46,081 nucleotides of DNA from a virus (Duplodnaviria; Heunggongvirae; Uroviricota; Caudoviricetes), in the IMG/VR virus record IMGVR_UViG_2684623059_000005. One strand, given 5' to 3'. Position numbers: made by a program. Below, piece by piece: positions 39,201 to 42,200 of the stretch (positions are counted from its first letter, which is position 1; each line of letters opens with the position of its first letter).

Positions 39201-42200
39201 TGCGTTTCAGAGTGGACTCTGACCAGAACGGAAACTGCTCCAGCCACTGTTCTGTCGTGTTATAAACCCAGCGAATTCCGCCATGCTCAGTGCCTGAATT
39301 CGTTTCATTCAGCCAGTAATGAAGCTGCTGCAACACAATTGCCTCATTCAGACCAATACGGCATGCAAGATCACGATTTATCACAATGGGCTGGGATGTC
39401 ATTAACAGGCTCATGACCGACCTCTATTTCCCTGAATTTACGACGAAACTGTTCGAGCGGACTGAAGCATTCATGTTCATAGCCTTCACGGAGGTAGATA
39501 ACCCGTTGTGTTTCCGGCTCCCAACGAATGACTCTGACGGGCACTCCGTAGTGATCTTTGAACCAGCGGTTAACTTGTCGCAAAGGACTGTCTCCTTCTG
39601 CCGGTTGAAATCACCCACAGCCCACTCTGCAAAGCTGTGGGTTACAATTTCCCTGTCACCTGGTACATTCACTGCATAGCAATACTCCACCTTCGCTTTT
39701 CCACCCGGTACAGGAAGCGCAATCAGTTGCGAGCGACGGTAGTGTGTTGTTAAACTGTTCATGCGTTAGTTTCTCCACAACCAGAAGCAATCGACGCCAC
39801 GACGCCCGGAGCTGCACACTCGCGGGCGTTACTCTTTTCCGGCGCACAAAAAACACGAAATAACAGTGTTAAATGCTCCTGCCACTTCGCCATTACTTGG
39901 TAGCTGTTCTCTTCGATTTGCTCACGCTCAGCCTGGTCAATAACTCCATCAGCAGTTGCCTTGCGTAAGTACTGGGAATGCTTGCCAATCCATTCTATTG
40001 ACTCCATCAGCCGCTGATTAATGTCACCATTGTCAATGTCATCAATGACCACCAGCGGCACAAACACCCCATTACTACGACGGGCTATTGCATCCGTTAC
40101 ATGCCTGGTACCACTGGCATCCTGTAAAACCATGGCCCACTCAAGTGGAAAAATTTGATCCCCACCGCTACGCAGTCTGTTATGCAATTGATCTTTTGCT
40201 GGGGTGATATCATCAGATTTATACAAACCAAGAATTTCTGCTGCTTCCTCATAGCCATGAGGTAAATCAGCAATCGTTCTTCGTATTGCTGCCACCAGCC
40301 ATGCTGGTTGCTTATCAACTTTCCATTCAGGTTCTTTACCCACGTTTAAGCCCTCATATCTGTGGTTTCTGTAAATCGATTTATCCATTAGATTTTTCAT
40401 AAAGCTCAGGTTTAAATGGCAACCGTCCGCAAGTTCTATATGCAGCCTCTGCTGCACGTCCTTTTGGAATTAACTGGCCAGGACGGTTTCGCCACTGATA
40501 AACGGCTTCAGTTGTTATGCCGAAAAAAGCAGCAACTTTCTCAATGCTGCCGAAGTAGCTTTCGATATCGTCAGTCGTCATATGCCCTCCTAACTAAGTT
40601 TTATTAGATGTTAATTATCAATCTATCTTAGGTCAATAAAAACTAAGATTACTTAGTAATTAAAGAAATGGTGCTCCTATGGAAACGGTTGGTCAGCGTA
40701 TAAAATCTCTGAGAAGAGTTACCAGAACGTCCCAGAAAGAATTGGGTAAATTTTGTGGAGTAAGTGACGTTGCTGTGGGGTACTGGGAGAAAGACATCAA
40801 TGTCCCTGGTGGAGAAGCACTTTCAAAATTAGCGAAGTTCTTCAATACGTCAATAGATTACATTCTTTATGGTGCGGAGTTTGAAGGCAAACTCGTCACA
40901 AACATGCGCAGAGTTCCTGTAATCTCGTGGGTTCAGGCTGGGCAGTTTACTGAGTGCAGGACAGCAGAAGTGTTTAGTGAAGTAGACAAGTGGGTAGATA
41001 CATCATTAAAGATTGGTGATAACTCATTTGCATTGGAGGTTAAAGGCGACTCCATGACTAACCCTAACGGCCTCCCAACAATACCAGAAGGCGCAACAGT
41101 GATTGTAGATCCTGATGCAGAACCCCGGCATGGAAAAATAGTCATCGCTAGACTTGATGGAACAAACGAAGCCACAGTAAAAAAATTAGTTATCGATGGC
41201 CCCCAAAAGTTTTTAGTGCCATTAAATCCCCGGTACCCCAACATCCCGATCAATGGTAATTGCCTCATCATTGGTGTAGTCAAAGGAGTTCAATACGAAC
41301 TCTAGCCCCCCTTTTCTCTAACCAAAACACCGAACTAAGAAAAGTTTGGTGTTTTCTCTTGCCATCAAAACTAAGTTAAGTTAGATTTTATATCAAAGAT
41401 AACGAACAGGCAGGACGCCCACGAAGTAGCCGACGGTGGCGTATGAATGACCGGATGATTCGCACATGGCAGGAGAGTGAATATGGATGGCAGTATCGAC
41501 AACCAACGAGATGCCTGGCTTGTGGTGATTGAAGCAGCAAAAACTGCATTAAGCCAAGTTGAAAGCAGTAACTACAGAACAGTTAAACAAATGGCTTTGG
41601 GCTCTATTATCTATGCCTTTGAAAGGCTGGGCTTTGATTTTGAAGCAACGAGTATTCTGTCAGAACAACATGAAAAAATGAATAGAGAAGACGCCGCAGC
41701 CTATATCGGCGTAGAAGCGCAAACCTTAGCTAATTGGGCTAGCACAGGAAAAGTTCGAATACCTTTTTTAAAAATCGGTAGAAAGGTTATTTACCTAAAA
41801 AGTGATCTTGATGCCTATCTTGCCTCATCGAAGGCAAATACCACCAAGTAGCTCACATACCTACCACCTCGCCTGATGTGGCTAAAAGCAGGCACATAAC
41901 AGCTAAGTATTTTCAACCAGAGAGAATCCTTAGCGTTGTGGTGAATGCGGCTCAGCGCACGCGGGTTAAGGTTGAGACTGACAGTCGACCTTCTGTGGAT
42001 ACCCACCCGCCTGGTGTGCAACCTTCGCCAGGCACCGGGAGGCACCCGGCACCACAACAGCCACTGCTTTGGCGGTACCAGTTTGTACACTTGCTTCCGG
42101 CTGGTACCGCTCTTTTTACAAAACAGAGAAGAGCATCACCGGACGACGGGCTCATAACCCAATCCACCCGGGCGGCTGCCACCGCAGGTGTTCTTCTCTG

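Follow-up and report, generated by a model that had tools for sequence, protein, structure and literature searches.

How does a lambdoid phage without the antiterminator N transcribe the part of its early-left operon that lies beyond the operon's first terminator? We take up this question at the pL locus of the IMG/VR virus record IMGVR_UViG_2684623059_000005 (Caudoviricetes), a stretch of 46,081 nucleotides (nt) that we call the window and in which the ‘leftward’ early operon runs rightward on the plus strand. Our central result is a structured leader RNA, here named R1, which starts about 8 nt into the predicted pL transcript and precedes the first gene of the operon, a gene encoding a helix-turn-helix (HTH) protein of the HTH_17 family (coordinates of all features are collected in Table 1). 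A sequence search with 3.3 kb around the locus finds Escherichia virus mEp460_4F5 at 98.9% identity, and segments of this stretch also match SfV, SfII, SfIV, ST64B, Stx2c phages and numerous E. coli prophages. What the window contains is an N-less lambdoid phage, a near relative of mEp460_4F5 (about 99% identity), whose early-left operon is of the SfV/e14/ST64B/LLS type; set beside relatives of the SfV, e14 and ST64B type, its immunity region is that of mEp460_4F5 and LLS.

Members of the lambda N family are recognized by an arginine-rich motif, a match to the N profile and the RNA elements boxA and boxB, and none of this is found in the window. A Pfam scan of all 45 open reading frames (ORFs) of at least 40 amino acids (aa) in the early region lists 22 families, Q (PF03589) among them, and no N family. 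On the pL and pR sides there is no 5-bp hairpin with a GNRA-type loop that could serve as boxB, save one artefact made entirely of wobble pairs. The sole boxA-like string, CGCTCTTTTTA at 42108, we reject as a candidate: it consists of the 3′ arm and U tract of the terminator-like hairpin T1, and neither SfV nor ST64B conserves it. The layout itself resembles that of lambda, where the first pL gene is likewise followed by a terminator (N-tL1), whereas here that gene encodes an HTH_17 protein with neither an arginine-rich motif nor an N-family match, and there is no boxB hairpin and no conserved boxA. An earlier note on this DNA had described cI, its terminator, a repeat of the operator and then the first leftward gene, with neither an arginine-rich N nor a nut-like boxB in sight, and all of this agrees with what we find. 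Two corrections are needed. The absence of N is not news, having been published for the SfV-type phages (SfV, SfII, SfIV and LLS; PMC3851460, PMC12315714), and the interval 41388-41476, which was treated as spacer, holds R1, the most conserved feature of the region that the note described.

R1 comes to light when the interval from cI to the first gene is aligned across phages whose immunity regions differ: about 64 nt are conserved there, while promoters and operators vary. We gathered 108 distinct variants and placed 48 sequences in a structural alignment (A4), in which the helices P1, P1a and P2 are joined by a short pseudoknot helix (P3). With the proposed partners, 94.2% of the cells in A4 are paired, versus 21-45% when the partners are slid; changes on both sides are seen in 11 of the 15 pairs, and the observed score is reached by none of 500 shuffles. 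An independent set from bacterial genomes gives nearly the same contrast (93.8% paired versus 23-42% slid). The variants show directly how the helices are maintained: P1 appears as CGAA/UUCG, CCACC/GGUGG, GUCAUC/GAUGAC, GGAAC/GUUCC or UUCGG/CCGAA, and the versions of P2 include CCUGG/CCAGG, CCGAC/GUCGG, CUACC/GGUAG, CCACC/GGUGG and UCCGG/CCGGA. Pair 14-21, which occurs as C-G, U-A, U-G and G-C, extends a GC/GC match into a third helix that would form an H-type pseudoknot with P2, so that a pseudoknot in R1 is probable. The changing helices surround an invariant core, AGGCAGGACGCCCACGAAGUAGC...GC...GAA...AUGA (also written AGGCAGGAC-GCCCACGAAGUAGC ... GC ... GAA ... AUGA). No reading frame is conserved in R1, as stop codons interrupt every frame in many variants. 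Because paired positions change in a compensatory manner across independent sequences and no frame is conserved, R1 is a real structured non-coding RNA, and it constitutes a family of its own.

Searches for a known element of this kind return little. For R1, Rfam 15 gives no match to a hammerhead, other known ribozyme or riboswitch at E values up to 10 (positions 41250-42350 scanned); Rfam also lacks the put RNA of phage HK022, so that the absence of R1 from it is weak evidence of novelty. In the literature library searched, the core sequence brought up only unrelated yeast CRISPR protocols, and an earlier description of R1 is possible. The minimum-free-energy fold of R1 alone is uninformative (z +0.6), as is that of genuine put. 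The string GACGGUGGCGUA within R1 resembles an ops site, the target of RfaH; we reject this candidate, since the positions concerned vary and pair in P2.

The distribution of R1 is wide and its position narrow. BLAST finds it in 53 phage records from the genera Escherichia, Salmonella, Shigella, Klebsiella, Yersinia, Pectobacterium, Pantoea, Citrobacter, Aeromonas and Providencia; no record annotates it, and there is no overlap with the HK022 put set. At least 120 contigs of IMG/VR match in a pattern scan. When one genome per species is scanned, 73 of the 80 matches listed are confirmed by the covariance model, at 64-93 bits and nearly all in Enterobacterales; the other seven, in metagenome-assembled genomes of other phyla, have no covariance-model match and are due to chance. 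With the mEp237 version as BLAST query, 1841 of 5426 complete E. coli genomes (about a third) carry R1, and in the e14 prophage of K-12 it lies between ymfK/cohE and ymfJ, where RefSeq annotates nothing. Across more than 200 phage and prophage loci there is one R1 per locus, and the covariance model detects no second copy in the window and none on the pR side. Its start lies about 6-10 nt into the transcript across loci. A sigma70-like site is present no more than 60 nt upstream of R1 in 111 of 216 distinct loci, versus 37 of 432 controls; the upstream -10 element typically ends 13-16 nt before P1, and a TTGAC -35 element can be aligned at pL in 14 phages. In every annotated temperate phage R1 comes after the repressor gene and heads the leftward early operon. 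It also occurs behind sigma70-like promoters in the early regions of two lytic phages, one T5-like and one T7-like, and so is not restricted to temperate lambdoids.

Table 1. Features of the pL locus and its surroundings, with the two occurrences of R1 in lytic phages (dG, folding free energy; z, z score; positions are those of the window unless a locus record is named).
Feature	Position	Strand	Description
R1 leader RNA	41397..41468	+	72 nt; covariance model 77.7 bits, E 6e-23
R1 helix P1	41403-41406/41459-41462	+	
R1 helix P1a	41409-41411/41417-41419	+	
R1 helix P2	41433-41437/41450-41454	+	
R1 pseudoknot helix P3 (probable)	41429-41431/41438-41440	+	
R1 in T5-like Providencia phage PSTCR5	L008 2999-3072		
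R1 in T7-like Drulisvirus Minorna (Escherichia phage Minorna)	L014 1161-1234		
cro	40581-40381	-	gene
CP76/cII-like gene		-	
cI-type repressor, LexA-like	40679..41305	+	Pfam HTH_3 and Peptidase_S24
cI terminator	41324..41354	+	hairpin AAAACACCGAACU/AGUUUGGUGUUUU, then U-rich tail; dG -15.6, z -4.6
pL promoter-like site	41359..41387	+	sigma70-like, TTGCCA-17-TAGATT; promoter search
122-aa protein gene (HTH_17; likely start)	41483..41851	+	N-terminal helical hairpin and C-terminal HTH_17/MerR-excisionase winged helix (predicted)
S40 element	41864..41893	+	30 nt, CCACCUCGCCUGAUGUGGCUAAAAGCAGGC; nearly invariant across phages
M module	41938..42055	+	multi-hairpin RNA closed by GUGGUG/CACCAC; STnc100-related; from folding
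T1	42071..42118	+	intrinsic-terminator-like GC-rich hairpin, GGCGGUACCAG...CUGGUACCGC then UCUUUUUAC; dG -21.3, z -3.7
H2	42113..42211	+	25-bp long hairpin with conserved internal two-hairpin junction; dG -49.2, z -7.2
yfdP	42255..42617	+	first gene of the conserved yfdP-yfdQ(DUF2303)-yfdR(HD) early-left block

The placement of R1, directly downstream of an early promoter in an N-less lambdoid phage, is that of the put sites of HK022. put RNA works in cis: it targets RNA polymerase at the β′ zinc-binding domain and so suppresses termination. The two systems have in common a structured RNA of about 70 nt right after pL with conserved unpaired nucleotides, a variable gene behind this RNA (nun in HK022, an N-like gene in some R1 loci) and no apparent phage protein partner. 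They differ in fold, R1 consisting of a closing helix, a small hairpin and an H-type pseudoknot where put has two stem-loops with a triplex, and they differ in number, since R1 is a single copy whereas HK022 carries both putL and putR. Short strings (CGAAC.GGC and GGAUGA) had suggested that R1 might be a relative of put. The comparison with HK022-type phages that the earlier note had called for shows no such relationship: the BLAST sets of R1 and put are disjoint, and the R1 covariance model has no match in the pL/pR region of HK022.

What would an RNA at this position have to overcome? No credible ORF is found in the 400 nt that separate the HTH_17 gene from yfdP; they fold at -171 kcal/mol (z -6.6 versus shuffles) and hold S40, the M module, T1 and H2. 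At least 120 viral contigs carry S40, as a rule between R1 and the M module (in LLS, at L266 2140-2175, it comes directly after pL). Its sequence permits a possible pseudoknot (CCAC/GUGG and GCCUG/CAGGC) and shows no covariation, the element being too invariant for such a test; S40 may be a binding site for a protein or for the polymerase. The M module occurs in several variants and is related to STnc100: the Rfam family RF02076 gives a full-length match at 41917-42119 with 36.3 bits (E 4.9e-6), which lies below the gathering score of 47. With STnc100 and PasD it shares the closing helix GGUGAAU...CACCGGGAGGCACCCGGCACCA, several internal hairpins, an intrinsic terminator at the end and a location in a phage operon; it differs from them in the internal hairpins and in lying in the early-left, not the late, operon. 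A promoter search detects no separate promoter before it. T1, which separates the first pL gene from the rest of the operon, is conserved in position and not in sequence, an unrelated hairpin with a U tract standing at the same place in ST64B, phiES15, LLS and canonical STnc100. H2 is conserved in ST64B, mEp460, LLS and Lys8385Vzw; it stands shortly before yfdP, the U tract of T1 forms part of its 5′ arm, and it reads as a terminator on the opposite strand too.

Two further observations concern the M module in other genomes. In Lys8385Vzw (L145 2595-2800) and mEp460 (L007), pL leads directly into a variant of the module with the same GUGGUGAAU...CACCAC closing helix and a different interior, with neither R1 nor a first gene in between. 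In e14, the annotated gene ymfH (L138 4799-5110) overlies an STnc100-like M module and terminator (GUGGUGAAUGCGG...CACCAC, hairpin and U tract), and more likely marks an RNA element than a protein-coding sequence.

Comparison of whole operons separates what is constant from what is exchanged. SfV, SfII, SfIV, e14, ST64B, phiNP and LLS share with the window R1 (LLS excepted), the M/T1/H2 region and yfdPQR, at 74-96% DNA identity. They differ from it in the first-gene slot, which in place of the HTH_17 gene holds ymfJ/orf33 in SfV and the K-12 prophage e14 and is empty in ST64B and LLS, as it is in Lys8385Vzw. M/T1/H2 and yfdP are retained whether the slot holds ymfJ or nothing, and SfV, e14, ST64B, LLS and Lys8385Vzw all keep the downstream RNA and terminator region without the HTH_17 gene. 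The spacing from R1 to S40 ranges from 66 to 1200 nt. In 169 distinct R1 loci, the first ORFs behind R1 make up 75 clusters unrelated to one another. One of these clusters (6 of the 169 loci, L068 included) has an N-like first gene (phrog_271, E 8e-5; sequence ...KMRRHLERS...ENIIDEAFG), for which nun behind putL in HK022 is a precedent. On this comparative evidence, the HTH_17 gene forms a compact cassette between R1 and S40 with about 10-15 nt of flank on each side. Because relatives hold another gene or none in the slot, its product appears to be dispensable for the operon architecture and is unlikely to be the general substitute for N in this type of phage.

The joint explanation that we favor, tentatively and at somewhat less than even chances, is an N-less operon with an accessory HTH_17 regulator, in which a cis-acting leader RNA carries pL transcription past T1. 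On this explanation, transcription from pL would pass T1 and some 400 nt of untranslated RNA without N, and R1, possibly together with S40 and the M module, would act on the elongation complex or on the access of Rho, in function like the put RNA of HK022 and unrelated to it as an RNA. That early-left transcription depends on a cis-acting RNA and not on a phage protein, and hence on RNA antitermination, is plausible by analogy: the position and size of R1 are analogous to those of putL, no conserved protein partner is encoded near R1, unrelated phages with nothing in common but the host polymerase carry R1, and the long untranslated leaders of, for example, ST64B and LLS would otherwise attract Rho. 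The single copy at pL fits the organization of the pR operon, where only weak terminator-like sites are found up to Q and the strong one (33589-33570) comes after it. The prophage e14 has R1, ymfJ and M/T1 with no N and no HTH gene, and there the induction of ymfJ late in the SOS response is accompanied by that of the distal intE (PMC11002266); because the two are induced together, read-through probably takes place in e14. The authors who described LLS proposed a put RNA-mediated mechanism for the N-less type, with no RNA identified (PMC12315714). The different antitermination strategy suggested in the earlier note is thereby retained in part: an RNA-based strategy is plausible, with a covarying RNA at the putL/nutL position and a T1 to pass, while antitermination itself is something that we infer.

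Several observations weigh against this explanation. R1 is absent from mEp460 (JQ182728), Lys8385Vzw, LLS and phiES15, and because all four carry M/T1/H2, R1 is not universally required to pass T1. The six loci with an N-like first gene show that R1 and N-like proteins are not mutually exclusive. R1 has no sequence or model similarity to put and, unlike put, no pR copy. The N-terminal half of the HTH_17 protein is modeled with a predicted local distance difference test (pLDDT) score of about 65. A canonical sense-strand terminator is found up to 1.5 kb after R1 in only 35 of 93 loci, which is no enrichment, by a crude scan that overlooks T1 owing to its long loop. Finally, T1 may be no more than a leaky terminator that gives rise to an STnc100-type small RNA (sRNA).

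This last point can be developed into a serious rival, which we regard as less likely all the same. In it there is no dedicated antitermination at pL: a leaky T1 would mainly yield an sRNA of the STnc100/PasD type, either as the 3′ end of the first-gene mRNA or as a processed fragment, the downstream genes would be fed by basal read-through, and R1 would have another job, as a 5′ stabilizer, a sensor akin to a riboswitch, or a decoy or sponge aimed at a host factor or a defence system. The M module and T1 do resemble STnc100, which, like PasD, is reported as an Hfq-associated prophage sRNA (bioRxiv 10.64898/2026.05.13.724894) and which Stx2 phages carry within an operon, 75 nt downstream of stx2 (PMC12370729). 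M/T1/H2 is retained in phages that lack R1, sense-strand terminators are not enriched after R1, and the combination of invariant junctions with variable helices in R1 is also typical of aptamers that bind ligands or proteins. Against this rival, the 3′ flank of R1 differs between classes and offers no consistent expression platform; the match to STnc100 remains below gathering (36.3 versus 47); and the strict position of R1, about 8 nt into host-polymerase transcripts of very different phages, fits an action on the polymerase at least equally well. Our preferred explanation has a more far-reaching form, in which R1, possibly with S40, would represent a new class of cis-acting RNA that modifies the host RNA polymerase or blocks Rho at the start of the early transcript; we offer this as a conjecture with the chances decidedly against it.

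The first gene of the operon deserves separate attention, as it was here that the earlier note had looked for a regulator. The ORF at 41477..41851 on the plus strand, 124 aa from a GTG at 41477, is confirmed in the ORF list. Its likely start is the ATG at 41483, because AGGAG at 41471-41475 sits 7 nt 5′ of that codon and all database homologues are 122 aa long, so the protein described in the note as having 124 aa probably has 122. The gene is a real one to judge from Citrobacter, where a homologue with 88% amino-acid identity keeps the same position and the codon changes (16 synonymous, 15 non-synonymous) concentrate at third codon positions (5/10/17 by codon position). The C-terminal HTH of AlpA/excisionase type that the note had seen is borne out by a profile search, in which residues 71-117 belong to Pfam HTH_17 (PF12728; 37.1 bits against a cut-off of 27, E 3.8e-9) and not to Phage_AlpA. 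Full-length homologues are few and confined to E. coli and Citrobacter, whereas the C-terminal 55-57 or so residues are 61-69% identical to stand-alone HTH_17 proteins of 69-73 aa from Pantoea and Xenorhabdus, which occupy the AlpA position of integrase-HTH-primase (P4-like) islands. AlphaFold predicts a helical hairpin of residues 4-26 and 31-48 (the part with pLDDT near 65), a linker, and a winged helix of residues 65-121 (pLDDT 80-90). Against the Protein Data Bank (PDB), Foldseek recovers only a generic MerR/excisionase fold, with no match reaching E 0.001; the RdfS excisionase (8dgl) comes first at E 0.01 and 26% identity, followed by BldC, RacA and Xis. PHROGs returns phrog_66, ‘excisionase and transcriptional regulator’ (E 1e-7), and families without an assigned function.

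We place the protein in the HTH_17/AlpA-Xis class, as a new member that carries an additional N-terminal domain. It has in common with winged-helix proteins of the AlpA, Xis, RdfS and TorI type (HTH_17, Phage_AlpA) the C-terminal winged helix and, in its nearest relatives, the AlpA slot of P4-like islands; it differs from them in its N-terminal two-helix domain and in heading pL instead of lying beside int. As far as fold and context allow us to say, it is probably an accessory, sequence-specific DNA-binding regulator of AlpA/excisionase type, and it probably dimerizes through the N-terminal helical hairpin. The idea of a novel early regulator can be kept in this sense; a substitute for N it is unlikely to be, given that relatives without the gene keep the RNA and terminator region.

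Could the protein instead be a recombination directionality factor (excisionase), for the phage or for another integrated element? RdfS and Xis proteins among the structural matches, the hit to phrog_66, and HTH-domain relatives (61-69% over about 57 aa) that adjoin integrases in Pantoea P4-like islands all point in this direction, and we nevertheless consider it improbable. None of the structural matches comes up to E 0.001, and what the earlier note had named as grounds for abandoning its view, an N homologue in a small ORF or a clear match to a known excisionase, is not found. An excisionase gene adjoins its cognate integrase, but this one is promoter-proximal in pL and several kb away from int. 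In mEp460_4F5 the integrase is encoded about 7 kb further along, at the distal end of the operon, beside a PrtN-family (PF11112) Xis-like gene, and because that gene adjoins int, the HTH_17 protein is unlikely to be the phage's own excisionase. Known small Xis proteins also have nothing like its extra 60-aa N-terminal domain.

A yet slimmer chance attaches to the HTH_17 protein being itself an early antiterminator, Q- or AlpA-like, that would be bound to DNA near the promoter, load onto RNA polymerase and pass T1. Pseudomonas aeruginosa AlpA, a processive antiterminator, shares its fold class; as the first pL gene, upstream of T1, it holds the position of N; and it co-occurs with S40-M-T1 in both E. 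coli and Citrobacter. But S40/M/T1/H2-yfdP is equally present with ymfJ or with an empty slot, which argues against a requirement for the protein; its family is tiny, with those two hosts only; its Pfam match is to HTH_17 and not Phage_AlpA; and no candidate binding site is identified. The least probable reading is that R1 or S40 serves, in the manner of nut, to recruit a trans-acting phage or host protein and is not a self-acting RNA, for although six R1 loci have an N-like first gene and the near-invariance of S40 without covariation suits a site read by a conserved protein, there is no conserved neighboring gene, the window has no N family, and the presence of R1 in unrelated lytic phages means that a partner, if any, would need to be a host factor.

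Around these elements the immunity region carries a 17-mer operator motif, ACTAAGTTNNNTTAGAT, which occurs exactly at 40593-40609 in the cI-cro intergenic region and again at 41370-41386, where the copy (ACTAAGTTAAGTTAGAT) overlies the -10 of pL; a third copy, with two mismatches, lies at 40641-40657 on the minus strand. The operator motif has five matches in the window versus 0.12 expected by chance. The cI terminator is also picked up by a separate terminator scan. The Citrobacter relative (locus record L139 2921-3802, minus strand) has a 293-aa gene with a weak BRCT match between cI and pL, a moron that is absent from the window. In the 1.5 kb after R1, terminator-like hairpins are about five times as frequent on the antisense as on the sense strand (231 versus 49 over 93 loci, L001-L137), and these antisense hairpins may insulate the early-left operon against convergent transcription. 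Elsewhere in the window, two adjacent Q-related ORFs lie at 34376-36134 on the minus strand, one matching Pfam Antiterm (PF03589) and the other annotated as Q in mEp460_4F5. Downstream of the Q genes and the strong terminator is a cluster of three tRNA genes (33147-33446, minus strand), at a position that Stx phages use for tRNAs and toxin genes. The early ORFs also include a match to a DnaJ-type zinc finger.

Early-left transcription in the N-less phages SfV, ST64B, e14 and LLS is an acknowledged gap, and R1 makes the question directly testable. Should the more far-reaching form of our explanation hold, R1 would do the work of put with a pseudoknotted fold of unrelated origin, would be present in hundreds of Enterobacterales prophages (e14 included) and in T5- and T7-like lytic phages, and would explain early-left expression in the large group of N-less lambdoid phages. 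To our knowledge, put has so far been essentially a one-family curiosity, a status that a second, structurally unrelated leader RNA would end. The first pL slot presents itself as a cassette site that takes up ymfJ, N/Nun-like genes or the HTH_17 protein, and the AlpA-like domain of the latter hints at cross-talk with P4-like satellites. Whatever its role, R1 is a widespread, unannotated structured RNA of phage early transcripts.

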